A stretch of 64,000 nt of DNA from an uncultured Planctomycetaceae bacterium (GCA_964599535.1 CAZRFP010000001.1:3558-67557), one strand, 5' to 3'; shown: positions 802 to 59,068, counted from the first letter of the stretch. Program-made: numbers and translations. Notes: generated by a model from the sequence alone, not told the origin.

Positions 802-937
802 GACTCGACAAGTGAAGCTGAACGCGAATAGCGAATGAAGAATGGCGAGTGTAGAGACAGGGGCGGTGCCTCATGCGTCTTCCACACTCAACATTCTTCA
901 TTCTGCATTCCCCCTCACCGCGCAAACAGCGTTGTCG

Positions 938-1038
938 TAGACCGGGACAGACGACTTTGCGGGTCGGGGGAGCATCGGCGTCCCGCTGGTGCGCACGGAT
1001 CGATTCACTACAACCCGAATATCCGGTTGTCTCGACCC
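938..1038 (-). repeat. dispersed ~100-bp intergenic repeat, copy A (inverted relative to copies B and C)
   Basis: The reverse complement aligns along its length with 38495..38591 and 43323..43420. The shared core is GGGTTGNNGTGAWTCGATCCGTKCGCACCRGCGGGACGYCGATGC. Confidence 0.7.
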
Positions 1039-1049
1039 AGAAGATCACC

Positions 1050-10797: not shown

Positions 10798-11493
10798 TTA
10801 TTCACTCGCCGCCGACAAGACGCCGGGCAGTTCGACGAGTCCACCGAGAAAGCCGCGATGCTCCCGATGGGCGGCGCAGCAGTCGATGCGAATGACGACG
10901 CGGCCGTCTTCGTGTGTCGCCGGACCGGACTTCACATCGTGCGGAAACGAATCGAGGATGGACTGAATTCTGAGCAACGTCTTGCCGGATTCATCGCCCA
11001 GCACCAGCTTCAGCCGTTCGATGCGACAGCGACCGAGCACTACGCGATCAATCGCGCCGGCCGCGCCGAGCGTCGCCAGAATCAGCAACGTGAAGAAAAG
11101 CCCGGCTGCCAGATGGCCTGTGCCGAGAACGACGCCGACGGCGGCCGTTGCCCAGATGCCCGCTGCGGTGGTGACGCCGACGAGCAGTCCGCGTTCACGA
11201 ATGATCGCGCCCGCGCCGAGAAAGCCGATGCCGGAAACGACTTGCGCCGCGACGCGCGCCCGATCGCCGATATGATCGCCGATGATGAGGATCGACGCCT
11301 GCGTGAAGATGGCCGATCCGAGGCAGATTAAGACGAGCGTGCGCAGGCCGGTGGGCTTTCGGGCGCGCTGGCGTTCCAGGCCGATCAGGCCGCCGCAGAC
11401 GACGGCGGCGGCGGTCGAGAGGATGCCGGCCCACTGGGGGCCGACCACTGCGTGAATATCTCCGAGCCAGGGCTGCAACCATTCCGGCATCAT
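10798..11493 (-). CDS. MgtC/SapB family membrane protein
   Basis: Family-typical segments are GLIGLERQRARKPTGLRT and VSGIGFLGAGAII...GVTTAAGIWATAAVG. Confidence 0.85.
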   Translation of the reverse strand: MMPEWLQPWLGDIHAVVGPQWAGILSTAAAVVCGGLIGLERQRARKPTGLRTLVLICLGSAIFTQASILIIGDHIGDRARVAAQVVSGIGFLGAGAIIRERGLLVGVTTAAGIWATAAVGVVLGTGHLAAGLFFTLLILATLGAAGAIDRVVLGRCRIERLKLVLGDESGKTLLRIQSILDSFPHDVKSGPATHEDGRVVIRIDCCAAHREHRGFLGGLVELPGVLSAASE

Positions 11494-11605
11494 GACTTTC
11501 CTCCGAGTGTCCGCCCCTTGCGACCGCCGCGAAAGGCCTATCTAATGTCGGGCTTTCGACTCGTAAATCAAGCGGTTTTCCAACCAAACCGCAAGGAGCG
11601 CACCT

Positions 11606-12928
11606 TTGGATATCGCAAAACTCGAAAAGAAGATCACCAGCAAGAAGGCCCTTATCGGCGTGATGGGCATGGGCTACGTCGGACTGCCGCTGGCGCGGAC
11701 TTTCGGCAAGGCGGGTTATCCCATTCTCGCCTTCGACGTCGATCCGCAGAAGATCAAAATGCTCAACGCCGGCAAGAGCTACATCCAGCACATCCCCGAT
11801 TCGCAGATTCAGACGCTGATCGACTCGAAGCGCTTCCGCGCCACCGCCGACATGGGCGAACTCGGCAAGCCTGACGTCATCGTCATCTGCGTGCCGACGC
11901 CCCTTTCCAAGACGCGCGACCCGGACATGAGCTATGTCGAGTCCACCGCCCACGCCATCGCCAGGACGCTGCGCCCCGGCCAGCTCGTCACCCTCGAATC
12001 CACCACTTATCCCGGAACGACGCGCGATCTGGTCAAGCCCATCCTCGAGAAAGGCAGCAAGCTCAAGGCCGGACGAGATTTCTTCCTCGCCTACAGCCCC
12101 GAGCGCGAAGACCCCGGCCGTCAGGACTACACCACCGAGACCATTCCCAAGGTCGTCGGCGGCTACGACGCGAAGAGCCGACGCCTCGCGATGGCGCTCT
12201 ATTCAAACTCGATCGCCAAGGCCGTGCCCGTGGCGAACTGCGAAGTCGCCGAGGCCGCGAAGATTCTGGAAAACGTCTACCGCTGCGTCAACATCGCCAT
12301 GGTCAATGAGCTGAAGGTGCTCTTCGACAAGATGGGCATCGACGTGTGGGACGTGATCAACGCCGCCAAGACCAAGCCCTTCGGCTTTTCCGCGTTCTAT
12401 CCCGGCCCCGGCCTCGGCGGCCACTGCATCCCCATCGATCCGTTCTACCTCACCTGGAAGGCCCGGCAGTACGGCGAGTCGACGCGCTTCATCGAGCTGG
12501 CCGGCGAGATCAACACCCACATGCCGGAATACGTCATCAACCGGCTGGCCATGGCGCTCAACGACCGCAAGAAGTCGATCAAAGGCTCGCGCATCCTCGT
12601 GCTCGGCCTGGCCTACAAGAAAGACGTGGACGACATCCGCGAAAGCCCGAGCATCGAGCTGATCCACATCCTCCGCGACCGCGGGGCGCTGGTCGATTAC
12701 AACGACCCCCACGTGCCCAAGACCCACAAGGGCCGCGAGCACGATCTGCGCATGGTGTCGGTCCCGCTGACGGCGGCCAACCTGAAGAAGTACGACGCCG
12801 TGCTCATCTCGACCGATCACTCGGCCTACGACTACGGCTTCATCGTTCGCAACGCCAGGCTGGTGGTCGACGCGCGCAACGCCACCATCGGCGTGAAGCG
12901 CGGCCGCGAGAAGATCGTGAAGGCGTGA
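11606..12928 (+). CDS. nucleotide-sugar (UDP-N-acetylhexosamine-type) dehydrogenase
   Basis: Rossmann motif GVMGMGYVGLP; family motifs VPTPL, ESTTYPGTT, YSPERxDPG and GGHCIP. The TTG start is preceded by AAGGAG 6 nt upstream. Confidence 0.85.
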   Translation: MDIAKLEKKITSKKALIGVMGMGYVGLPLARTFGKAGYPILAFDVDPQKIKMLNAGKSYIQHIPDSQIQTLIDSKRFRATADMGELGKPDVIVICVPTPLSKTRDPDMSYVESTAHAIARTLRPGQLVTLESTTYPGTTRDLVKPILEKGSKLKAGRDFFLAYSPEREDPGRQDYTTETIPKVVGGYDAKSRRLAMALYSNSIAKAVPVANCEVAEAAKILENVYRCVNIAMVNELKVLFDKMGIDVWDVINAAKTKPFGFSAFYPGPGLGGHCIPIDPFYLTWKARQYGESTRFIELAGEINTHMPEYVINRLAMALNDRKKSIKGSRILVLGLAYKKDVDDIRESPSIELIHILRDRGALVDYNDPHVPKTHKGREHDLRMVSVPLTAANLKKYDAVLISTDHSAYDYGFIVRNARLVVDARNATIGVKRGREKIVKA

Positions 12929-12949
12929 GGCCGGACGTGGAATTGGGCC

Positions 12950-13244
12950 CCATGTGCCCGATTTCGTGCCTGAAACACCCCGTTTCCGGCCCCATTTGCC
13001 CCGTTTGGCGCCCGAAACGCTCCGTTTGTGACACTTTTTGAAGCAAAAAGTGACACAAATGCGCCGTTTATGTACGGAAACGCCCGTTTGATGACCCGAA
13101 ATGCCCCGTTCATGGCCGGAAACGCGCGGTTCAGGGTCAGAAATGCAGGGTTTATGGCCGGAAATCCCGCGTTGATGACCGGAAATGCAGGGTTTATGAC
13201 CCGAAATGCACGGTGGATGACCCGAAACAGGCGGCCCGTGGGCG
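12950..13244. repeat. tandem array 1: about 13 phased units of a degenerate 21-bp repeat (consensus about ATGACCGGAAATGCAGGGTTT)
   Basis: GAAA(T/C) cores start at 12972, 13014, 13056 (CAAAT), 13077, 13098, 13119, 13140, 13161, 13182, 13203 and 13224. All spacings are exact multiples of 21. Confidence 0.85.
13025..13059. repeat. AT-rich inverted repeat embedded in array 1
   Basis: TTTGTGACACTTTTT-gaagc-AAAAAGTGACACAAA, with 15-nt arms and one mismatch. It sits about 100 bp downstream of the dehydrogenase stop. Confidence 0.75.
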
Positions 13245-13267
13245 TGGATGGCCGCATTGTCGCGAGG

Positions 13268-13338
13268 GGATGATGGAGCCTGTACGCACCGGCGAGACGC
13301 CGATGCTCCCCGGCCCTGTCAGTGGTTGGACCCGGTCT
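13268..13338 (+). repeat. partial copy D of the dispersed ~100-bp repeat (core only)
   Basis: ACGCACCGGCGAGACGCCGATGCTCCCCGG matches the core of copies A, B and C. It lies between the two 21-bp arrays. Confidence 0.55.
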
Positions 13339-13339
13339 G

Positions 13340-13510
13340 CCCGACACCCGGATTCCAGCCCCCGGTACCGGGTTTCAGGCCCCCTGTACCGGATTTCAGG
13401 TCCCCGGTACCCGGTTTCAGGCCCCCGTGGTCCGGTTTCGAGCACCAGGTTCCAAGCCTCAAGCCCCCTGCACCCGGCTTTAGGCCCCCGTCGCCCGGTC
13501 GCCAGCCGCC
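13340..13510. repeat. tandem array 2: about 7-8 phased units of a second 21-bp repeat (consensus about GTACCGGTTTCAGGCCCCCG)
   Basis: TTC cores occur at 13353, 13374, 13395, 13416, 13437 and 13479 (TTT), with a degenerate unit at 13458. The period is exactly 21 bp. Confidence 0.75.
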
Positions 13511-13518
13511 CGGCTCCG

Positions 13519-15006
13519 CTATCGGCCCCGCTCACTCAGGACCGGCGGGGTCGTTGGCTCGGGCAGGCCCTCGGCCATCGATCGGCGAGGGTGGGCGTGG
13601 CGCACCCCCGTCTTCGTGTCGAAAAAGTTGAGCATCAGGCTGTAGAAGTAGTCCTTGCAGTAGGCCGCGAAGCCGTCGTGGCCACCCCCCTTGAGGATGA
13701 TGCCGGCGACGTTGGGGTTTTTCGTTTCGGCGAAGACGTCGGCGACCTCCTGGGCGTAGGCCAGCGGATCGTCGGAGGCGTGCAGGATCAGCACCGGCAC
13801 GCGGGCCGACTCCAGCTTGCGGCCGGAGGGGCGGCCCTTGTAGGGCAGGAAGCGCAGATAGTCGAAGCCGTCGTCCATGAAGCCGTCGTAATCGAAGCCC
13901 GAGTCGACCAGCTCGCGATGGATGAGGCGGCGCAGGCTGCCGTCAACATCGTCGTAACCGCGCAGCCTGGCCCGCCAGTTGACCGTGTTCTGCACGGCGT
14001 TGAGCACGGGGTTTTTGAGGATGGGCCACTGATGATCGAGGGCATCGACGGTGTTGGTCTCGAAGTCGAGCACCGGCGAGATGCAGAAGACGCCGGCCTT
14101 GAAGTAGAGCTGGTCGCCACGCGGATGGAGAAACGGCTTCAGCCGGGGAGAAACGCTGGGGTGGTCGTCATCGCGGCCGTTTTCCCAGACGGCGAGAAGT
14201 GCGACGTTGGCGTTCCAACTGAAGGCGACGACGCCGGTCTCGCGCACGTGCGGCAGGGCCTCGACCCAGCGGGCGACGGCGATGAGATCGCCGGCCTCAA
14301 GAGTGCCGTAGTTGTAGGGGATGTCGGGGTAGCGGGCGTGGGTCTGGCCGTGGCCGCGGAACTCGAGCGAGAGGACGTGATAGCCGGCATCGGTGAAGAA
14401 GGCGCCGATGTCACGGGCGCGTTTTCGCATGTTGTCGCCGAGCAGGCCGGGCAGCAGGATGATGCAGTCCGCTTCGACGATGCGGCCGCCCTCGCGCGCC
14501 CAGCCGACGCGGGCCGAGAGGCTGAGCGTGTCGTTGATGGGAACCCAGATGTCGTCGAAGCCGTCCCAGGGCGGCGCGGGGTTAATGGTGGCGTTGGTGC
14601 TGCCGGTGACTTGCGCCGTGTGGGAGATGCCGGAGAGATTGCCGATGAGGGTGTGGAGCATCGACTTGATCTTGCGGAAGTGGGCGAAGACATCGACGGG
14701 CTTGCCGGATGCGTCCGTCAACTGCTCGGTGACGAGGGGTCGAAGCCGGCGCTCGTCATAGGGAAGCAGATGGGCCAACTCGACGTGCGCTCGGCGGGTC
14801 CATTCGCGCACGTTGCGGGGGGGGTGGTCTTCCTTGTAACCGACCGGGATGACATCCTGCGGATCGTAAGTAAAGGACCGCTCCGAAAAACAGCCGGCGC
14901 ACAGAGCGAGGACGAATATGGATGCGGGGGCGAGGGAATGACGGGGATTGAACAAGGAACTCTCCAGGAGCGACGCCCGCCGGTTGCGAACTTTCGCGCC
15001 AAGCAC
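13519..15006 (-). CDS. alpha/beta-hydrolase fold protein (YheT/ABHD-like), probably secreted or lipid-anchored
   Basis: Hydrophobic N-terminus is SIFVLALCAGC. Has an HGQT oxyanion-region-like segment. The nucleophile region reads VVAFSWNANV. Later segments are HASDDP and GGGHDGF. GTG start. Confidence 0.7.
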   Translation of the reverse strand: MLGAKVRNRRASLLESSLFNPRHSLAPASIFVLALCAGCFSERSFTYDPQDVIPVGYKEDHPPRNVREWTRRAHVELAHLLPYDERRLRPLVTEQLTDASGKPVDVFAHFRKIKSMLHTLIGNLSGISHTAQVTGSTNATINPAPPWDGFDDIWVPINDTLSLSARVGWAREGGRIVEADCIILLPGLLGDNMRKRARDIGAFFTDAGYHVLSLEFRGHGQTHARYPDIPYNYGTLEAGDLIAVARWVEALPHVRETGVVAFSWNANVALLAVWENGRDDDHPSVSPRLKPFLHPRGDQLYFKAGVFCISPVLDFETNTVDALDHQWPILKNPVLNAVQNTVNWRARLRGYDDVDGSLRRLIHRELVDSGFDYDGFMDDGFDYLRFLPYKGRPSGRKLESARVPVLILHASDDPLAYAQEVADVFAETKNPNVAGIILKGGGHDGFAAYCKDYFYSLMLNFFDTKTGVRHAHPRRSMAEGLPEPTTPPVLSERGR

Positions 15007-29120: not shown

Positions 29121-32100
29121 TTATGGCGCCAGCAACGCCGCGACCATGCCGTCCACGTCGCCGACATCCATCACGCCGTTGTCGTTGAAGTCACCGGGGC
29201 ACAGATCGGCCGTATCGACCGACTGATCCATGATGGCGTTGACGAAGAGCTGCAAGTCGGCGCCGTCCACGTCGCCGCTGCCATCCATGTCGCCGGTTGC
29301 CGGCGTTTCCGGATTGCCGCAGCCGCAGTTGCCGGGCGACGTCTTCTCCGGATCGTTCGGGCAGTCGTCTTCGCAATCGGGCGTGCCGTCTTGGTCGGAG
29401 TCGATGGGCGTGTTGATGCACTCGCCTGCATCGCAGACATCCTCGGTGCATGGGTCGTCGTCGTCGCATTCAATGTCATCGACGCAGCCTTCGCAATCAT
29501 CGGGGATGCCGTTGTGGTTGGCATCGTTCTGCGTGCCCGCGCCGAATTCGCAGCCGTCTGAAACGCCGTTTTCGTTGCAATCCGGCAGGTCCTGGCAGGC
29601 ATCGAGTATGCCGTCAGGCCGCGCCGGCGCGTTGCCCGTGTCGTTCAGGAAGGCTTCCAGATCGGCGAAATCCTGCGCGGTGAAGCCGGGGAAGGCGCCG
29701 CCGGGATGGTTGGTCGGCGGCAGGAGCTTGTTCGAGATGGTGGTTCTCGACTTGTTCCTCAGGCTCGGTCCGGGGCAGGGTCCGCCGGGTCCGCCGCAGT
29801 CAACGCCGAAAGCGCCGGGGCCGTGGCAGCCGAAGCAGAACGTGCTGATGAGAATGCCGCCGTCCGAAGGCGCGCCGGTCGGACCGCCGTCGCAGTCGCC
29901 GCCGCCGGCAGCGATGTCGCACTCGTCGGGAATGCCGTTGTTGTTGCAGTCCTGACTGGTGCCGTTGGCGATGTCGATGGCATCGGTGATGCCGTTCTCG
30001 TTGCAGTCGCACGGGTCGATCGGTTCGCCCTGTGTCGAGATGATCAGGCCCCAACTGACGAGCGAACCTGTATCACCCGAAGCGCGGTCGATCACACGCA
30101 GGTTCCAAGTGCCCTGTGCGTTCATGCCGTTGAATGCGCTGAGTGGGTTATTCGGCGTGTAGCTCGGCGGCGATGTCAGGTTTGTCGTGCAGCGGTCCTC
30201 AATGGTGCCGCCGACGCCCTGATCGTCGATGATCACGTTTACCAGGTTGTCCGCCGCGCAGCCATATGGCGATCCGGAATGGCACGTGCCGGCCTCGCCC
30301 ATGCGCTGAATCATGGCGACGGTTGTTCCGTTGTGCTCGATCTCAATGCACAGGTCGCCGACCCATGTGTGTGTGATGTTCAGCAGCACGTTGACATCCG
30401 TCACGAGGTAGGACGTGGGCACGGTGATGGTGCGCACGACGCCGGTCGCGTTGTTGTCCGGAATCGCGGCGGGGTAGCCCGCGCCGGAACCGTTGTATTC
30501 GTTGACAGCCGAGGAGGGTTCGCAATCGTCTGGAATGCCGTTGTTGTTGCAGTCGAAGCTGTTGCCGACGTCGATATCTTCGCCGTCATCAACGCCGTTG
30601 TTATTGCAGTCGCCGTTGGCGAACTGGCAATTTGAATTGCAATATTCACCGGGGGGATCGCACTGCTCGCCGGCCTCGACGATGTCGTTGCCGCATTCGC
30701 CGCAGGGGAACGCCGAGTTGGAGACGAGCAGATTGCCCGTGCCGAAGTTGCCGGAGTTCCAACCGCCGACGCGAATAAGATATCGCTGCCAGGCGACCAC
30801 CGGCGTGATGATCGTACTCTTGAATCCGCCGCCGCTCGCGCCGCAAGCGTTGTTCGGATCATCGTCGTTGCAGGCGACGAAGATGCGCGACGTGCAGCTC
30901 TCGCCGTCCCACGTGTAGAGCACAAGATCGGTGTCGTAGCTCGCGCTGCCGCCGAGCTGATCGCAGGTCGTGACCGTGAGCGTGCCGTTGCAGGGCGAGA
31001 GATAGTCATACCAGATGTCATTGAACGTCTGGCCGCCGTCGCCGGCCGTGACGCACTGGGCGTGTGGCTCGCCGTCGGTCGTCGCGCCGATCGTGCTGAA
31101 CGGATGGAGTCCGTCAGTGATCGGGAAGGCATCATCGCAGTTGTCATTCGTCTCGATCATGCAGTTGAAGCAGCCGTCGCCGGGGATGTCGTTGCCGTCG
31201 TCGCACTGCTCGCCGGGATCGAGTTCGCCGTTGCCGCACAGGCTGGGCGGCGCGGCACAGACGATCTTGTAGATCGAGCCGAGGATACTGACGACATACA
31301 TCTCGCCTGCGGCGTCTTCACCGAACGACACGATGCCTTGGATCGCGCCGCCGGCCGCCTGCTCTGTCTGCAAGTCCGTCACGCTGCCGTTGTAGCGGAA
31401 GCGCTTGATGTAGTTGCCCAGATAGTCGGCGTAGAAATACGAGCCGCTCAGCCAGGGCATTTCGCAGCCGCGATAGACATGGCCGCCGGTGATCGAGCCG
31501 GTGCCCTGTCCATCGCCGTGAGACTCTTCGCGAATCGGCAGGACCAGGCCGACGTTGCACGTGCAGCCCGAGAGACCGGTGCAGAGTGTGCCTTCCATGC
31601 AGCGCCAGCCGTAGTTTAATCCGCCCGGCGAACCGGCCGCGGTGAAGTTGATCTCCTCGCGGGCATCCTGTCCGACATCTGCGATCCAGAGATCACCCGT
31701 GAGCCGGTCGAAGCTGAATCGCCAGGGATTTCGCAGACCCTTGGCCCAGACTTCCGGCAGATGCGGTGAGCCGGGATTGTCGGCCGGCACATAGGTCGGC
31801 GGGTTATCGACATCGAGGCGGAGCATCTTGCCGAGCAGAGAGGCGTTGCTCTGCGCGCGGCCGAACGGATCGTTTGCGTTTCCGCCGTCGCCCATGCCGA
31901 CATAGAGCTTGCCATCGGGACCGAACTGGATGCATCCGCCGTTGTGGTTCGCGAAGTCTTGTGTGATGGTCTTCAGAATGGTGGCCGAACCGGCGTTCGC
32001 GGTGTTCGACGCGGGGTTGCCGCCCGTTGCCTGATAGCGCGCGACAACGGTGTTGCCCGACGTGTTCGTGTAATTTACGTAGAAGTAAGCGTTGTTCTGC

Positions 32101-34274
32101 CAATTCGGATGGAACGCAAGGCCGAGCAGTCCGCGCTCGCCGCTTGAGCTGACGATCGAACTCAGGTTCAAATACGGCGTGGCCTCGACCGTGTAAGACG
32201 GCAGATTCACGATCTTGATGCGGCCGGTCTGTTCGACGACGAACAGGCGCGACGTATCGCCCGGCGCGGCATAGACCCCGACCGGCACGCTGAGTCCGGT
32301 GATGACTTCTGAAAATGCAAGATTGCAGGGCTCAAACGACTGGCACTCGTCGGGAACGCCGTCATTGTTGCAGTCCTGACTGGTGCCGTTGGCAATGTCG
32401 TCCGAGTCTTCCACGCCGTTGGGCTGGCAGTCCTGTGGACCGATGGCCGGTCCGACCGTCGCGGCCGTGACGCTTGCGGGCGATCCGGTTCGGAAGAGCG
32501 TGAGCGTCGCGTTGGACGATGTTGGTGCCTGATCGCAGTCGAAGCGGAAGTTGTAGAGCGTTCCCCAGAGCAGGGCGTTCGAGTTTGCACCGATGTCGGT
32601 CATGGTCCAGCTTACGACGCCGCCGGCCGCGCTGCCGGTCCAGTCAGTGCCGTCGCGTGTGACGGCGCCCTCGCCGTCGTTGTCGTAGTAGTTCACATCG
32701 CGGAAGCCGATGTTGGAAACCGTCGCCGCCGGATCGACCGGAATGCTGAAGACCTTTACGCCGCGATGCGAATTCAAGTTCTGCACGGCGTATTCATAAT
32801 GGAAGAGTCCGCCGCCGATGTTGGTGGCTTTGGCGGAAACGATGATGAGTCCGTCGTTGGGCACCTGTACGTCGGTTTCGGTGACGCTGGGATCCTGATG
32901 TTTCCAGGCGCGGATGGCGCAATCGGAGCGCATCGTGGTTCCGGCGAGCGAGAAGGTGCGATTACCGCCGGCGCTACCGCCGACCGTGATCTGGCGATAG
33001 GAGGCGTTGTTGTTGTCGTTTCCTGCTTCGGCGTCGTCCTTGGCGATGTACTGCGACTCGACGAAGTACAGGGCGCCGGGTTCATTCAGATCGGCCTCGC
33101 GAATGCGCAGGCGTCGACCGGTGTTGGACGAGTAGCCGCCGGGATTGCTGATGGGATGGATGTGAACGCCGGTGGAGGGATTGACCTGCCACTTCGGCCC
33201 GGCGCCCGACTGTCCGCCGTTTCGCGTTGCGGCATAGGGATCGGCGCAGCCGACGCCCAGCGCGCTGCCGCCACTGCCGCTCTGACAGGTGCAGCAGAGA
33301 TTATTCTGGAGAGCGAAAAAGCCGTGCTTCAGCCATGACTGGCCGAGTTGCTCAAAGCGCGTGGCGCCGTCCGATGCGGTGTAGTAACGATAGAAGTTCT
33401 GGCCGATGACCGGGTGCAGACCAATGCCTCCCGAGTCGCCGGAAATCCACTGGAGCGTTTGCGTGCCGATGTTGCAGGAGTAGGTGCCGACTGAAAAGGC
33501 GTCATATAAAACGCCACCCACTGATTCCGATGCGTAATTCGCTATCTCGTGCATTTCACCGACGATCACGTCCGGGCCGGTGTTGCCCTGGCACGACCAG
33601 TCGCGCGGTGCGCCGTCGCCGTCGTCTTGGCCGGTCGAGGGGATCAGAACGTCGCCCATTTCGACCAGTGCGTCGCCGCCGGTCCAAGTGGCCGGCGCGA
33701 CGACTTCGAGCGCGCCGATGGACAATCCGGCGAGCTTGGGGCTTCCCATGGCGTCGGCCAGTTCTTCGCTGATCGCAAGGTGCGCCGCTTCGAGAAGGAA
33801 GCGGCTCGACGCATGATCCATGCCGATCTTTGCATCGGCCACATGCAGCATCGGGCCTTTGAGTGCGCTGCTGCCGCTGTAGATGTCGAACGATACGCCG
33901 TCTTCCGTGTCGATCGGCACGATCTTGAAACCACGCAGCACGATCGTCGCCTCGCCGTGGCGAATGATGATGTCGTCGCCATGGCGCAGATCGCCGATCG
34001 GTCGGCTGGTGAGCATTCCGCCGACTTCGGTAAGGCTCATCGACGCGCCGTCGTTGACGTGAAGCGCGACGACGTTCTGATCGAAGGCGGGATCGACGCG
34101 GAGCAGGTCCGCGTCGCCCTGCTGGATTTCGATGCCATACTGGTCGAGCGTCGGTCGATCGAGCAGCAGGCGCGTTTCACCACCGACAACAGCCCAGACC
34201 GAATCGGCCCGGGCCAAGCTGGGACACAAACAACAACAAAGTGCGAGCGCAGCGAGTGTGTACCTCTGGATCAT
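29121..34274 (-). CDS. giant secreted mosaic protein. Domains: PQQ-type (soluble glucose/sorbosone dehydrogenase-like) beta-propeller, Cys-rich repeat, proprotein-convertase P-domain, CXXCH module, TSP3-like repeats, dockerin-like C-terminus
   Basis: The start MIQRYTLAALALCCCLCPSLARA (signal peptide) has GGAGAAGG upstream. Propeller motifs are GLLGLAFHPNW, NHNGGCIQFGPDGKLYVGMGDGG, GLRNPWRFSFD and GLNYGW. The P-domain is THTWVGDL..GTWNLRV.D. The haem motif CFGCH lies at 29823-29837. DSDQDGTPDCEDDCPNDP is TSP3-like. GDMDGSGDVDGADL and GDFNDNGVMDVGDV are dockerin-like. Confidence 0.9.
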   Translation of the reverse strand: MIQRYTLAALALCCCLCPSLARADSVWAVVGGETRLLLDRPTLDQYGIEIQQGDADLLRVDPAFDQNVVALHVNDGASMSLTEVGGMLTSRPIGDLRHGDDIIIRHGEATIVLRGFKIVPIDTEDGVSFDIYSGSSALKGPMLHVADAKIGMDHASSRFLLEAAHLAISEELADAMGSPKLAGLSIGALEVVAPATWTGGDALVEMGDVLIPSTGQDDGDGAPRDWSCQGNTGPDVIVGEMHEIANYASESVGGVLYDAFSVGTYSCNIGTQTLQWISGDSGGIGLHPVIGQNFYRYYTASDGATRFEQLGQSWLKHGFFALQNNLCCTCQSGSGGSALGVGCADPYAATRNGGQSGAGPKWQVNPSTGVHIHPISNPGGYSSNTGRRLRIREADLNEPGALYFVESQYIAKDDAEAGNDNNNASYRQITVGGSAGGNRTFSLAGTTMRSDCAIRAWKHQDPSVTETDVQVPNDGLIIVSAKATNIGGGLFHYEYAVQNLNSHRGVKVFSIPVDPAATVSNIGFRDVNYYDNDGEGAVTRDGTDWTGSAAGGVVSWTMTDIGANSNALLWGTLYNFRFDCDQAPTSSNATLTLFRTGSPASVTAATVGPAIGPQDCQPNGVEDSDDIANGTSQDCNNDGVPDECQSFEPCNLAFSEVITGLSVPVGVYAAPGDTSRLFVVEQTGRIKIVNLPSYTVEATPYLNLSSIVSSSGERGLLGLAFHPNWQNNAYFYVNYTNTSGNTVVARYQATGGNPASNTANAGSATILKTITQDFANHNGGCIQFGPDGKLYVGMGDGGNANDPFGRAQSNASLLGKMLRLDVDNPPTYVPADNPGSPHLPEVWAKGLRNPWRFSFDRLTGDLWIADVGQDAREEINFTAAGSPGGLNYGWRCMEGTLCTGLSGCTCNVGLVLPIREESHGDGQGTGSITGGHVYRGCEMPWLSGSYFYADYLGNYIKRFRYNGSVTDLQTEQAAGGAIQGIVSFGEDAAGEMYVVSILGSIYKIVCAAPPSLCGNGELDPGEQCDDGNDIPGDGCFNCMIETNDNCDDAFPITDGLHPFSTIGATTDGEPHAQCVTAGDGGQTFNDIWYDYLSPCNGTLTVTTCDQLGGSASYDTDLVLYTWDGESCTSRIFVACNDDDPNNACGASGGGFKSTIITPVVAWQRYLIRVGGWNSGNFGTGNLLVSNSAFPCGECGNDIVEAGEQCDPPGEYCNSNCQFANGDCNNNGVDDGEDIDVGNSFDCNNNGIPDDCEPSSAVNEYNGSGAGYPAAIPDNNATGVVRTITVPTSYLVTDVNVLLNITHTWVGDLCIEIEHNGTTVAMIQRMGEAGTCHSGSPYGCAADNLVNVIIDDQGVGGTIEDRCTTNLTSPPSYTPNNPLSAFNGMNAQGTWNLRVIDRASGDTGSLVSWGLIISTQGEPIDPCDCNENGITDAIDIANGTSQDCNNNGIPDECDIAAGGGDCDGGPTGAPSDGGILISTFCFGCHGPGAFGVDCGGPGGPCPGPSLRNKSRTTISNKLLPPTNHPGGAFPGFTAQDFADLEAFLNDTGNAPARPDGILDACQDLPDCNENGVSDGCEFGAGTQNDANHNGIPDDCEGCVDDIECDDDDPCTEDVCDAGECINTPIDSDQDGTPDCEDDCPNDPEKTSPGNCGCGNPETPATGDMDGSGDVDGADLQLFVNAIMDQSVDTADLCPGDFNDNGVMDVGDVDGMVAALLAP

Positions 34275-34788
34275 TCCTACCTTCTCCCTTTTTAAGATTG
34301 CGAAAACCACTCCCTGTGCGGAGTGCGAAAACTCTGCATCGCGGCATAAGCAGCGAATCAAGCGCGGGTTGGAACTCGGTATCAGACGTCCCGTGTGGAT
34401 CGGTCGGACGGACGGGCGAGTGGAGAAAACATGTCGGAAACGTCCGCGTGGGGACGAACTCGCCCCGACTGCCTCTGGGACCTTTGCGGTACCGAGGTTC
34501 GGAAGGACCTACTCCTACCTACCCCTTATTGATATCTACTATTACCGGATCAGCAGGGGTGAATCAAGCAAACGCATCGGTGAAAAGTCCGTGAATCTTC
34601 GGCATGATGCTTGAGGGGCGAAAAAACGTGGACCTGCGCAAAAATTCCCATCACCCGACTTTCAGTAGATCGCGTGTTAACGCTACCAGGCTCGATGCCG
34701 GATTCCGGATTCACGCGCCGTTACGCACGATGTGCGCCTGCGTGTTCGCGCTACAATTGGCTCGCATATTTAGGAATCGGACGGCGCC

Positions 34789-38380: not shown

Positions 38381-38494
38381 TGCGCAAGGTTTGCCTTAAA
38401 CGGAGTGACGACGCCTTGGCATCATCGAGCCGGTCTAGCATACACTGTTGTTTCGCAGGTGATGCCGGGAATCGCGCGGCGGTGCAGACTCGTA

Positions 38495-38591
38495 GGCCAA
38501 GACAACCGAAATCTCGGGTTGATGTGATTCGATCCGTTCGCACCGGCGGGACGTCGATGCTCCCCGACCCGCAAAGCCGTCTGTTCCGGCC
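38495..38591 (+). repeat. dispersed ~100-bp intergenic repeat, copy B
   Basis: Aligns with 43323..43420 and with the reverse complement of 938..1038. It ends 2 nt before the stop codon of the convergent minus-strand gene. Confidence 0.7.
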
Positions 38592-38593
38592 TG

Positions 38594-43013: not shown

Positions 43014-43322
43014 GCCCGCAGCTCCTGCAATGTCGGCGACGATTCTGGTTTAGACATGGTTGAATCGCTGATTCGGATATTACCGCGCCGCGCGGTTCAT
43101 TTGAATCGATTTGTGCCTCGTCATTGCATAAAGTGGGTCATGCGTCGAGCGTTTATCGATATAAGCTTCGGAATGACATGTTGTTAATGCGTCCGAATCT
43201 GAATATTAAGTTTTGCCGCGACGGAAAATCACAGGTGGTGAAGTGCGAAAAAAGTGTTCGAAATGAGCTTGTCATGTAGGTGGGCTGTGTAGAGCGCTTG
43301 CGCCGCGTGCCTTGAGGCAAGT

Positions 43323-43420
43323 GGGCCGAAAAATCCGAGATTTCGGGTTGTGGTGATTCGATCCGTGCGCACCGGCGGGACGCCGATGCACCCGGACACC
43401 CAAAGTCACCTGTCTCGGCG
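43323..43420 (+). repeat. dispersed ~100-bp intergenic repeat, copy C
   Basis: Aligns with copy B across GGGTTGTGGTGATTCGATCCGTGCGCACCGGCGGGACGCCGATGC. Lies 30 nt beyond the hldE stop codon. Confidence 0.7.
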
Positions 43421-43450
43421 TATTAAAGCAGGCGTTGGATTGCAACAGGC

Positions 43451-56288: not shown

Positions 56289-59068
56289 GCGCTGTGCCGC
56301 GAGACATTCCCGCACCATCGAAATCGCCGCCCGGCGTTGACGCGGCCTACGCCGCCGAGCGCGCCAAATGGGTTGATCGGCAGACCAAGGACACGCTCGA
56401 TTGGGGCCATCAGCAGGCCGAGTCGCTCTGGGAAAAGCTCTACGCGCCGTATGATCCGATCGTTGACGGTCGATGCGTGCTGGACCTTGGCTGCTCTTGG
56501 GGCTATCTGCTGAAGTATCTTGCGGAGCGGTTCAATCCGTCGCAGTTGACCGGTGTCGACATCAAGCCCTGGTGGGAGACGACGGATCATGGCTGGGATT
56601 ACTCGAAGCTTGGCGATCGGCTTCAGTTTCACGCGGGCGATCTGGCCGACATCTGGGCGATTCCGCCGGAATCGCTCGATTTGATCTTGTGCACATCGGT
56701 GCTTCAGTACATGAAGCCGGAGCAGATCGAGGCGAATCTCTGCCGGGCTTATGATCTGCTGCGCCCCGGCGGCGAGATGCTGCTACGCACGCGCGTGTAC
56801 ACATCGTATATCGGGGCGGATCTGCATCGCGACATCGAGCTGCCTTACGCGCATCTGCTCTATCCGGAGCGCGAACTGGCCGAGTTTGTGCGCGCGAAAA
56901 ACGGCAAGGAGCCGCCCTATCTCAACTGGCTTACGGCGTCGACTTATCTGGCGATCTTCGTTCGCAGCGGCTTTGAAATACTCGATTGCCGTCGTCGGAT
57001 GAATAAGCACGCGCCGGCCGTGATGGAGCGCGTTGCAAAGGCCTATCCATGGATTTCACCCGAGGAGCTTTTTTGCGCGGAGATCGAGGCGCGGCTCGTT
57101 CGGCCGCTGGAGCCGGAGGATATTCGTCGATTCGGCCGAATGGTCTCGACGCGCGTCAAGGGCGCGGCCGTCGTCAATCCACACGCGGGATACGACGTGC
57201 CGCGCGCGGAGGCGCGGCTCGATGCGGCGCTGGGCGCTGGTGGGCGGCCGTTCATGATTCCGATGCGCCGTCCGGCACGGGCGCTGGAGGACGCGACGGC
57301 GATCGTTGAACGCGACGAATTCGTGATTCAGGCACATCCGGCGGTGAAGCTGAATCGGCCGGTGACGTGGCTGGAGGATCCGCTGTCCGACCGCAACTGG
57401 CGATTCTGGTTTCAGTCCGGCGCGCCGATCAGCACGCTGTTGCAGGCCTATCAGTCGTCGGGCGATGCTCGCTACTTGTCTCGCGCGGCCGAGCTGGTCG
57501 ATGCGTGGATCTGCACATCGCTCGACAAACGGGAAGGTGTCGATATGACGTGGCACGATCACGCGACGGCGATGCGTGCGATGACACTGCTTTACTTCTG
57601 GGAAGTTTGGCGGGAAAGCGACGCCGGCACCACCGATGGAACGCGCCCGTTAGCGGCGCGCGTGCTGGCGACGCTGATCGCGCATGCGCGGGTGCTGGCG
57701 AACGAGACGTTTTACATGCCGCAGCACAATCACGGTTTGGATCAGGCCCGTGCGCTGTTGGCGCTGGCATTGAACTTGCGCGAGACGGAAGAAGCCGCCG
57801 ACTGGGAAGCTCTTTCGCGCCGGCGCGTGGAGGAGCAGATTCGCGATACGATTTCGGCGGACGGCGTTCACTTCGAACACACGCCGGACTATCAGGGCCA
57901 TGTCTACCGAATGCTGGCCGAGCTGGATGCGTTTCTTTCGCGCTATGGGCAGCCCTGGCCGCTCCTGTGCGAGACGATGGATCGGATGATGACGTTCCTC
58001 GCGCACTGCCTGAAGCCGAATGGCGACTGGCCGAACATCGGCGACACAACGCCGGGCGGTCCGGCGAATGTCGTATTGTCGATGGATGATCGGCTGGAAG
58101 ACCATCCGGAGTTTCAGTTTGCATTGACGGGCGGTCGCGCGGGTTCGCCTCCGGTGGCGCGCGATCTGGTGCTTCCCGACAGCGGCTACGCGATCTTTCG
58201 CGAGAGCTGGGACGCTCGACTTGTGGATCGCGCGGTACAGATCATCTTCTGCGCCGCATACAACACGCGCACGCACAAGCATCAGGACGACCTGTCATTT
58301 GTCGTTCACGGCTTTGGGCGCGAACTGCTGGTCGATGCCGGCAAGTATAAATATGAATACGAGCACCCCATGCGGCAATTCTGCGAAAGCGCGTGGGGCC
58401 ACAACGTGGTCACGCACGACGGCGCGCCGGCTTCGTGGGACACCGATTACATCGGGCGCAGTGGCATTGTGGCGTCGTGGCAGTGCGGCGACACATCGGC
58501 CGTGGAAGGCGAGCATCATCTCTACGAGGGCGCGGTTGTTCGTCGGCTGCTGGTGTGGCGGCGGCCGGATGTCATTCTGGTCGTGGATTGGGCGGGCGGT
58601 CGAAAGGCGGCATGGCGACAGGTGTTCAATGTCGCGCCGGAGTTTGATGTGTGCGTCGATGGGCGGCTGGCGACAGCCGCGGCGCGCGACGGCGGCCCGG
58701 TCGTGCGCGTGTTTTCGATTGCGCCGGATGCGCCTTCGATTTCGCTGCATCGCGGCGAAGAATCGCCGCCGCGCGGCTGGGCGTCGTTGAAGTCAGGTGT
58801 CATCGAGCCGACATGCTCGATCGTGTCAGCCATCGAGTCGGCCGCACCGTGCTGGGTCACGCTTATCACGCTCGACGAGGGGCCGGACCGCGCCCGGAAG
58901 ATCGAAGGCTCGGCCGCCGTTTCGCATGACGGAATGACCGTTGATTTCAAACTGGACGGCGTGGCGTCGCGGATCGGTTATCGTCGTGCAGGCGGCCGAG
59001 CGATTCTGGACGTCGACGGGCAAACCGCCGAGTCTGACATTCTGCCGCTGCCGTATCATCGACGATAA
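56285..59068 (+). CDS. fusion protein: SAM-dependent methyltransferase (N-terminal) plus heparinase II/III-like domain (C-terminal)
   Basis: LDLGCSWGY and RPGGEMLLRT mark the methyltransferase. DPLSDRNWRFWFQ, WHDHATAMR, HNHGLDQA, HTPDYQG, HKHQDDLS and GHNV mark the heparinase II/III-like domain. There is an ATGA overlap with the upstream methyltransferase gene. Confidence 0.8.
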   Translation: MSAVPRDIPAPSKSPPGVDAAYAAERAKWVDRQTKDTLDWGHQQAESLWEKLYAPYDPIVDGRCVLDLGCSWGYLLKYLAERFNPSQLTGVDIKPWWETTDHGWDYSKLGDRLQFHAGDLADIWAIPPESLDLILCTSVLQYMKPEQIEANLCRAYDLLRPGGEMLLRTRVYTSYIGADLHRDIELPYAHLLYPERELAEFVRAKNGKEPPYLNWLTASTYLAIFVRSGFEILDCRRRMNKHAPAVMERVAKAYPWISPEELFCAEIEARLVRPLEPEDIRRFGRMVSTRVKGAAVVNPHAGYDVPRAEARLDAALGAGGRPFMIPMRRPARALEDATAIVERDEFVIQAHPAVKLNRPVTWLEDPLSDRNWRFWFQSGAPISTLLQAYQSSGDARYLSRAAELVDAWICTSLDKREGVDMTWHDHATAMRAMTLLYFWEVWRESDAGTTDGTRPLAARVLATLIAHARVLANETFYMPQHNHGLDQARALLALALNLRETEEAADWEALSRRRVEEQIRDTISADGVHFEHTPDYQGHVYRMLAELDAFLSRYGQPWPLLCETMDRMMTFLAHCLKPNGDWPNIGDTTPGGPANVVLSMDDRLEDHPEFQFALTGGRAGSPPVARDLVLPDSGYAIFRESWDARLVDRAVQIIFCAAYNTRTHKHQDDLSFVVHGFGRELLVDAGKYKYEYEHPMRQFCESAWGHNVVTHDGAPASWDTDYIGRSGIVASWQCGDTSAVEGEHHLYEGAVVRRLLVWRRPDVILVVDWAGGRKAAWRQVFNVAPEFDVCVDGRLATAAARDGGPVVRVFSIAPDAPSISLHRGEESPPRGWASLKSGVIEPTCSIVSAIESAAPCWVTLITLDEGPDRARKIEGSAAVSHDGMTVDFKLDGVASRIGYRRAGGRAILDVDGQTAESDILPLPYHRR

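Follow-up and report, generated by a model that had tools for sequence, protein, structure and literature searches.

The 590 bp that separate the stop codon of udg, encoding a UDP-glucose/GDP-mannose dehydrogenase, from that of a convergent alpha/beta hydrolase gene in an uncultured Planctomycetaceae bacterium (GCA_964599535.1, CAZRFP010000001.1:3558-67557; this stretch of 64,000 nucleotides is referred to here as the window) consist wholly of repeats (window positions 12929–13518), as an earlier note on this DNA had stated. We read this block, with a probability of about 0.7, as a copy, since expanded and rearranged, of a small mobile element (~105 bp) that is non-coding and non-autonomous and resembles miniature inverted-repeat transposable elements (MITEs) and REP sequences. 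As such it belongs to the broad kind of small modular interspersed repeats and not to a named family. The interest of the locus lies mainly in the apparently undescribed and recently active repeat family that it represents and in the extreme curvature predicted for one of its two arrays.

The dispersed element and its empty sites

A homologue of the hydrolase (86% identical) is encoded on a 123-kb contig, ERZ17990957 NODE_56, and the stretches of this contig that were compared (L119, L133 and L136) are collinear with the window at 85–91% nucleotide identity over about 50 kb. All four sites at which the window carries the element are empty in this closest relative:

Site A (arrays locus): 27 bp in the relative, 590 bp in the window
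Site B: 7 bp in the relative, 112 bp in the window
Site C: 6 bp in the relative, 112 bp in the window
Site D: absent from the relative, ~375-bp insertion containing the element in the window

No core sequence with four or fewer mismatches was found in loci L119 and L133 of the relative. Since the relative is empty at all four sites, the element behaves as a discrete insertion/deletion unit of ~105 bp. If these differences are gains, four insertions have occurred in 64 kb since the split from the relative, which would imply recent activity.

The core of the element (CGCACCGGCGRGACGYCGATGC) occurs four times in the window, at 13285, 38539 and 43368 on the plus strand and at 972–993 on the minus strand, in agreement with the earlier proposal that the spacer between the arrays carries the core of a dispersed ~100-bp element. 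The three copies outside the arrays locus (copy A), each of which aligns over its full length with the central part of that locus, are as follows:

38482–38593, plus strand: copy B, ending at the stop codon of a TPR gene
43320–43431, plus strand: copy C, 19 nt away from the stop codon of hldE and also present in an independent assembly (L132)
937–1043, minus strand: copy D, within the ~375-bp insertion (about 750–1125) missing from the relative

Between weak terminal inverted repeats, the element carries a hairpin module on its 5′ side, then a linker, the REP-like palindromic core of 27 nt and a 3′ module. The core is an imperfect palindrome (stem CACCGGCG/CGCCGATG, loop AGA) capable of forming a stem-loop, and the element ends pair weakly (columns 4–16 with 95–107 of the consensus fold), without compensatory changes among three sequences. 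In the window the elements lie 0–20 nt past stop codons, and in all four copies the 3′ side is turned toward the 3′ end of a gene.

Inside the ~375-bp insertion, copy D is bracketed by two copies (754–799 and 1050–1095; 89% identical) of a 46-nt sequence (ATCAGAGCCGCGCCCGTCAGGAAGCGGTGGACCGAGCG...) that is absent from all fetched loci. The pair may stem from a segmental duplication or belong to another kind of dispersed repeat.

A search for the core covering one genome per species returned at least 117 loci, nearly all from metagenome-assembled genomes (MAGs) of Phycisphaerae/Planctomycetota, with many per MAG. Across the loci listed the core, 27 nt with TCCCC included, forms an imperfect palindrome, and in about one third of the family instances listed an inverted partner core lies immediately upstream (head-to-head, REPIN-like); the four window cores are singletons. 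Among the matches listed, the core is reiterated in tandem, alone or with its flanks, in L005, L007, L015, L039 and L101, with periods of 35 bp (L005, 3.4 copies), 58 bp (L101, 5 copies) and 66 bp (L007), and 19-mers are repeated in L108 and L081. Core flanks are lineage-specific and often repetitive ((CAA)n-like tracts, 19-mers, 8-mers), and tandem repeats have a density of 1.04 per kb within 150 bp of cores versus 0.25 per kb elsewhere in the loci, values that are uncorrected for coding content. The orientation bias of the window recurs in weaker form across the at least 117 loci (49 gene ends versus 27 gene starts), and 29 of 140 core instances among the matches listed fall inside an open reading frame (ORF) by a crude ORF filter. 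The core is not flanked by a GTAG/CGTC tag, the sole GTAG occurring ~45 nt away, at the 5′ end of copy B. Cores in other genomes show no enrichment of GAAAY beside them, viral contigs gave no core matches, and Rfam gave nothing credible at gathering or permissive thresholds. We could not find such elements described for this lineage in the literature, and the core thus appears to define an undescribed family of small mobile repeats of Phycisphaerae with a strongly conserved 27-nt palindromic core.

Two further arrangements were seen around the core. Long A/C-rich tracts of (CAA)n type (AACAACAAAAACAA...) directly precede it in L016, L024, L027, L043, L045, L046, L083, L099, L103, L105 and L116. 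Elsewhere (e.g. L001, L006, L041, L091, L093 and L109) the core doublet lies within a larger palindromic element with outer ends CTAGTG ... CACTAG, and CACTAG is enriched 41-fold ~30 nt downstream of cores in the matches listed; this doublet element looks like a MITE with terminal inverted repeats.

Composition of the repeat-built block

The block and its flanking genes are made up of the following features:

11606–12928, plus strand: udg, left flank
12929–13518, no strand: repeat-built intergenic block, in the place of the 27-bp spacer of the closest syntenic relative
12946–13029, plus strand: left part of array 1, 4 units of 21 bp that share the phase of the right part and have a higher-order period of 42 bp
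13030–13050, no strand: AT-rich palindrome (CACTTTTTG-AAG-CAAAAAGTG) replacing exactly one 21-bp unit, predicted curvature maximum of the window
13051–13239, plus strand: right part of array 1, with 9 direct units that share homology with the element's 5′ hairpin module and have the consensus GGCCGGAAATGCnCGGTTtAT
13240–13284, plus strand: two degenerate units or hairpin-module remnant plus linker, running into the core
13285–13311, plus strand: REP-like palindromic core CGCACCGGCGAGACGCCGATGCTCCCC, common to at least 117 loci of Phycisphaerae MAGs
13312–13347, plus strand: 3′ module of the dispersed element, aligning with copies B, C and D
13348–13494, plus strand: array 2, ~7 units of 21 bp made up of a 12-bp palindrome (CCCGGTACCGGG) and a further 9 bp, the last units degenerate
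13453–13465, minus strand: 13-mer CAAGCCTCAAGCC, reverse complement of GGCTTGAGGCTTG from the 27-bp spacer of the relative
13519–15006, minus strand: alpha/beta hydrolase gene, right flank, its stop codon abutting array 2

Tandem Repeats Finder identified arrays of period 21/42 at 12946–13027, 13057–13227 (8.1 copies of 21 bp, 72% matches) and 13348–13439 (3.9 copies, 83–85% matches), and autocorrelation at lag 21 stands at z = 13–15 relative to shuffles. Taken together the 21/42-bp arrays extend over 12946–13239 (array 1) and 13348–13494 (array 2). Both methods agree with the strict 21-bp phasing that had been claimed, and a position weight matrix (PWM) scan of array 1 in the register 12946+21k recovered 13 recognisable direct units, every one in phase 0. 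Of the motifs previously given as unit cores, those at 13056 (CAAAT) and 13479 (TTT) are deviant. Neither array contains an indel, where 3–5 would be expected (P about 0.006–0.04) from the intergenic indel/substitution ratio between the window and the closest relative (41/647). The AT-rich palindrome has perfect 9-nt arms (13032–13040 and 13044–13052) and is unrelated to the other array-1 units, with T5 and A5 tracts in the columns where those units carry AAAY and TTTAT clusters.

In copy B the PWM of array 1 matches the 5′ hairpin module (AACCGAAATCTCGGGTTGATG) with 20.5 bits, compared with 5.8 ± 2.7 for the null, and its best match in copy D is at the equivalent position. Because of this match, which bears out the earlier remark that one 21-bp unit resembles the 5′ module of the element, array 1 is identified as a tandem amplification of the hairpin module, single in copies B, C and D and present as ~13–16 units in copy A. 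The broader proposal that the locus is a local amplification of element modules thus holds for array 1. Array 2, compared by PWM and local alignment, is not significantly similar to the core, to the element or, in whichever orientation, to array 1, which leaves the description of the block as two opposed, mutually inverted arrays without support. The 13-mer at 13453–13465 hints that array 2 could include an inverted remnant of the ancestral spacer, amplified and inverted. When JGI metagenomes were scanned for pairs of adjacent array-1 units, six isolated matches attributable to chance were obtained and no array.

These features suggest a sequence of events in which the element would have inserted just downstream of a stop codon in fixed orientation and its 5′ hairpin module would then have been amplified in tandem, likely by slipped-strand mispairing or unequal recombination, giving array 1. 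One array-1 unit would have been converted to a palindrome of unchanged length, probably by template switching, and a second, unrelated 21-bp unit of palindrome plus spacer would have been amplified beyond the other side of the core, giving array 2. Mobilisation would presumably occur in trans through a transposase, and the block probably has no essential function.

Several points weigh against this account. Mobility is argued from the empty sites only, since no transposase or RAYT was found in the window and ORF clustering revealed no recurrent transposase-like ORF family among the at least 117 loci. No target-site duplication is visible at the element junctions and the terminal inverted repeats are weak, and as the distant relatives (L120, L121, L130 and L131) are not syntenic at these junctions and provide no outgroup, insertion and precise deletion are not polarised. 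Array 2 cannot be derived from any element module. Neutral slippage does not explain why two unrelated arrays have exactly the same 21-bp period, nor the lack of indels together with a palindromic unit that holds both length and A/T phase, nor the extreme predicted curvature of array 1.

Among the closest described systems are REP/BIME/REPIN sequences of enterobacteria and Pseudomonas (PMC3733652, PMC3116915, PMC2817692, PMC3333891), which are short, imperfect GC-rich palindromes, extragenic and multi-copy, prefer gene 3′ ends, and are frequently reiterated in tandem with their flanks or arranged as inverted doublets, which in the present family occur in other genomes and not among the window copies; REP clusters in particular can be reiterated together with flanking DNA (PMC3733652). 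Unlike these, the elements studied here have no clear GTAG/CGTC tag on the core hairpin, no RAYT was found, the window core is a singleton in a ~105-bp element with extra modules, and the amplified units are flanking modules in direct 21-bp repetition, not the core and not REPs of alternating orientation. BOX elements of Streptococcus pneumoniae (boxA-(boxB)n-boxC; PMC3049150, PMC1315331) are likewise modular, MITE-like, small interspersed repeats of intergenic DNA with between-strain length polymorphism, in which boxB, an internal module, is repeated in tandem a variable number of times, with boxA on one side and boxC on the other (PMC3049150). They differ in being unrelated in sequence and lineage and in the length of boxB (~45 nt versus 21 nt here), and in the present locus amplification has affected two different modules, to either side of a central palindromic core, with ~13 units exceeding the usual boxB count. 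MITEs (PMC3184786) are similar in size (~100 bp), non-coding and multi-copy, with sites that are cleanly empty in a close relative and with terminal inverted repeats that are imperfect, whereas in the window such repeats are weak, target-site duplications are not visible and no parent insertion sequence was identified.

Predicted curvature of array 1

The A/T-versus-G/C signal of array 1 has no power at 21 bp and a power of 11.5 at 10.5 bp (shuffle maximum 1.7), with other harmonics at or below 1.9. For A/T periodicity of 10–11 bp, array 1 ranks first among all 147-bp segments of the 64 kb (7.3, versus a 99th percentile of 1.68). The argument that a 21-bp period, as two helical turns, places all unit cores on one face of the DNA is strengthened for array 1 by its A/T clusters every 10.5 bp. 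The two arrays are 3 bp out of phase with each other (13348 − 12946 = 19 × 21 + 3).

Curvature was calculated with a dinucleotide wedge model, with parameters attributed to Bolshoy (1991), which are consistent with the values of that table in its wedge/direction form. In this model array 1 has the highest curvature of the 64 kb, with a mean of 41 degrees per 31 bp (median 11.5, 99th percentile 34) and a maximum at 13037, in the palindromic unit, and its ratio of end-to-end distance to contour length is 0.18, compared with a median of 0.95. Equal compactness was reached by 3.2% of random 21-mers of the same composition repeated 14 times and by none of 1,000 column-permuted versions of the real array. 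Tandemised modules of copies B, C and D are far less curved than array 1, and no curvature is predicted for array 2. Since its unit spans two helical turns with A/T clusters every 10.5 bp, array 1 is predicted to be strongly bent.

Phased A-tracts are a known source of bent DNA, for example in the bends of kinetoplast minicircles and in curved DNA upstream of promoters. Array 1 resembles them in its A/T clusters, spaced at 10.5 bp over many turns, and in a predicted curvature of similar order to that of an A6-tract control in the same wedge model. It differs in that its tracts are only A3–4 or T3–5, with A and T alternating on one strand, and in that its curvature is a prediction for an array that arises from tandem repetition of a mobile-element module.

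With the 21-bp period common to both unrelated arrays, the predicted curvature of array 1 leaves room for a structural constraint, without demonstrating one. It is conceivable, if rather unlikely, that array 1 has been kept between the convergent genes as a helically phased, bent platform for gyrase, a nucleoid-associated protein or the transposase of the element. Consistent with this are the 10.5-bp A/T power, the highest of the 64 kb, the predicted bend and compaction, the lack of indels, and the palindromic unit that holds the A/T phase; array 1 is also more compact than 96.8% of random tandem 21-mers and all of its column-permuted versions, and much more curved than the parental modules. 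The closest precedent for such a wrapping site is provided by REP/BIME clusters, as BIME-2 clusters can be strong gyrase sites independent of transcription (PMC6379681). Against it, the block is missing from the closest relative and is hence not required, JGI metagenomes yielded no array of the array-1 unit, array 2 is predicted to be uncurved, and substitutions preserving weak (A/T) or strong (G/C) pairs show no significant excess (36% versus 26%). The A3 tracts are moreover shorter than classical bending A-tracts, and a tail probability of 3% is not decisive. A fuller form of the idea, which we consider decidedly doubtful, is that array 1 could be a selected superstructure of ~28 turns, helically phased by its 10.5-bp A/T clusters and forming a near-full loop for wrapping by a topology or nucleoid protein between the convergent genes; a repeat element would then have been domesticated in Planctomycetota to shape DNA architecture, and the common 21-bp period of both arrays would reflect that constraint. 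Should the predicted curvature prove real and selected, a repeat element would here have become a DNA-bending module, in a compact natural example; failing that, the locus is a repeat expansion of an ordinary, if elegant, sort.

Alternative readings and other features of the window

An assembly artefact, such as a chimeric join or repeats collapsed at a multi-copy element, seems very improbable. Two independent short-read contigs do break near the block, and array 2 is without confirmation from an independent assembly. However, the Logan contig L123, from a different run (SRR31189356), is 100% identical to window positions 11211–13314, including all of array 1 and the core, from which it follows that array 1 is not an assembly artefact, a possibility that the earlier note had named among its refutations; in addition, units differing by ~30% are not collapsible. 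The join is supported by the relative, in which udg and the hydrolase gene are adjacent in the same order.

The proposal that the block has the architecture of iterons, in which an initiator would act on phased repeats around an AT-rich unwinding element at a replication origin, or a ParB/ParR-like protein at a partition centromere, does not survive comparison and is now hardly credible. The likeness is real as far as it goes: direct repeats of iteron-like length (21 bp) are strictly phased and include an AT-rich palindrome, and plasmid iterons and the centromere repeats parC and sopC are likewise phased direct repeats of ~20 bp, in two clusters around a central region. Yet the block is chromosomal, lies between the stop codons of two housekeeping genes and is wholly missing from the syntenic relative, and its AT-rich tract is only ~21 bp. 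Pfam searches of window ORFs and of the gene calls of the relative found housekeeping genes only, with no Rep, ParB or transposase; neither rep, parB nor parR is present in the window, and its sole CbiA/ParA-like gene is 32 kb away. No DnaA box with one or fewer mismatches is found inside the block (the six in the window as a whole are at chance level and form no cluster), and cumulative GC skew rises without a lasting inflection near 13 kb.

A role at the RNA level, as a 3′-untranslated element of the hydrolase and/or udg mRNA that blocks exonucleases, terminates transcription or sponges up a protein with its repeated short hairpins, would fit the placement just after stop codons, the fixed orientation in the window and the 49:27 bias of the family, and both the core and the array-2 units (CCCGGTACCGGG) are capable of forming GC-rich hairpins. 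REPs have been proposed to function in transcription termination and mRNA stabilisation (PMC3733652). We nevertheless regard this role as improbable: the 590-nt fold is only marginally better than shuffles on the two strands (z = −1.5 and −2.3), the hairpin of the parental module is lost in array-1 units, three sequences give no covariation, and the block is absent from the relative. Promoter and terminator scans gave nothing above chance, terminator-like sites being at chance level, Rfam gave no match, and no tRNA or tmRNA was found.

That the 21-bp (7-codon) repeats might encode a heptad-repeat protein has a negligible probability. The period is a multiple of three, indels are lacking, and ORFs of 81–171 aa traverse both arrays on both strands; in L123 a gene caller also predicted a partial ORF of 160 aa over array 1, which corresponds to the 171-aa ORF of the minus strand. 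The GC content of array ORFs by codon position is flat, however (0.63/0.55/0.61, versus 0.6/0.43/0.8–0.89 in real genes), and variation between units has no period of three. The array ORFs have no Pfam match, and phmmer against 1.8 billion representatives gave weak matches only (best 5.6e-10), to other periodic ORFs. The minus-strand ORF takes in the dispersed non-coding core and overlaps udg antisense, and the ORF is absent from the relative. The arrays are non-coding, and heptad-repeat ORFs placed on arrays of this kind by gene callers are spurious, a point of relevance for annotation.

One of the phmmer matches lies on an unrelated high-GC contig (L135 1640–1870; ENA ERZ27256640 k141_1022681) and consists of ~11 tandem 21-bp units (GACGCCTTCAGCGTCTTGAAC), each with a GACGC/GCGTC palindrome, which a gene caller had taken for an ‘LNDAFSV’ heptad protein. 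Mis-called genes over phased 21-bp arrays of short palindromes may therefore be a recurrent phenomenon.

LytTR binding sites have a 9+12 = 21-bp spacing and were considered as a match for the repeat unit. They were dropped, as the window contains no LytTR gene and the site is not a promoter region.

Independent short-read contigs of the organism end at window position 13314 (L123, right after the REP-like core) and at 14274 (L118, which starts within the hydrolase gene). Short-read assemblies are evidently fragmented by the core.

A 1746-aa ORF (29121–34361, minus strand) contains internally repeated Cys/Asp-rich units of ~90 nt, and its homologue in the relative has matches to GSDH, DUF4215, P_proprotein and Dicty_CTDC. 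Two paralogous genes with heparinase II/III domains (47157–53294 and 56285–59068), one of which also encodes a fused glycosyltransferase domain and the other a fused methyltransferase domain, have diverged DNA repeats in common, ~10 kb apart.

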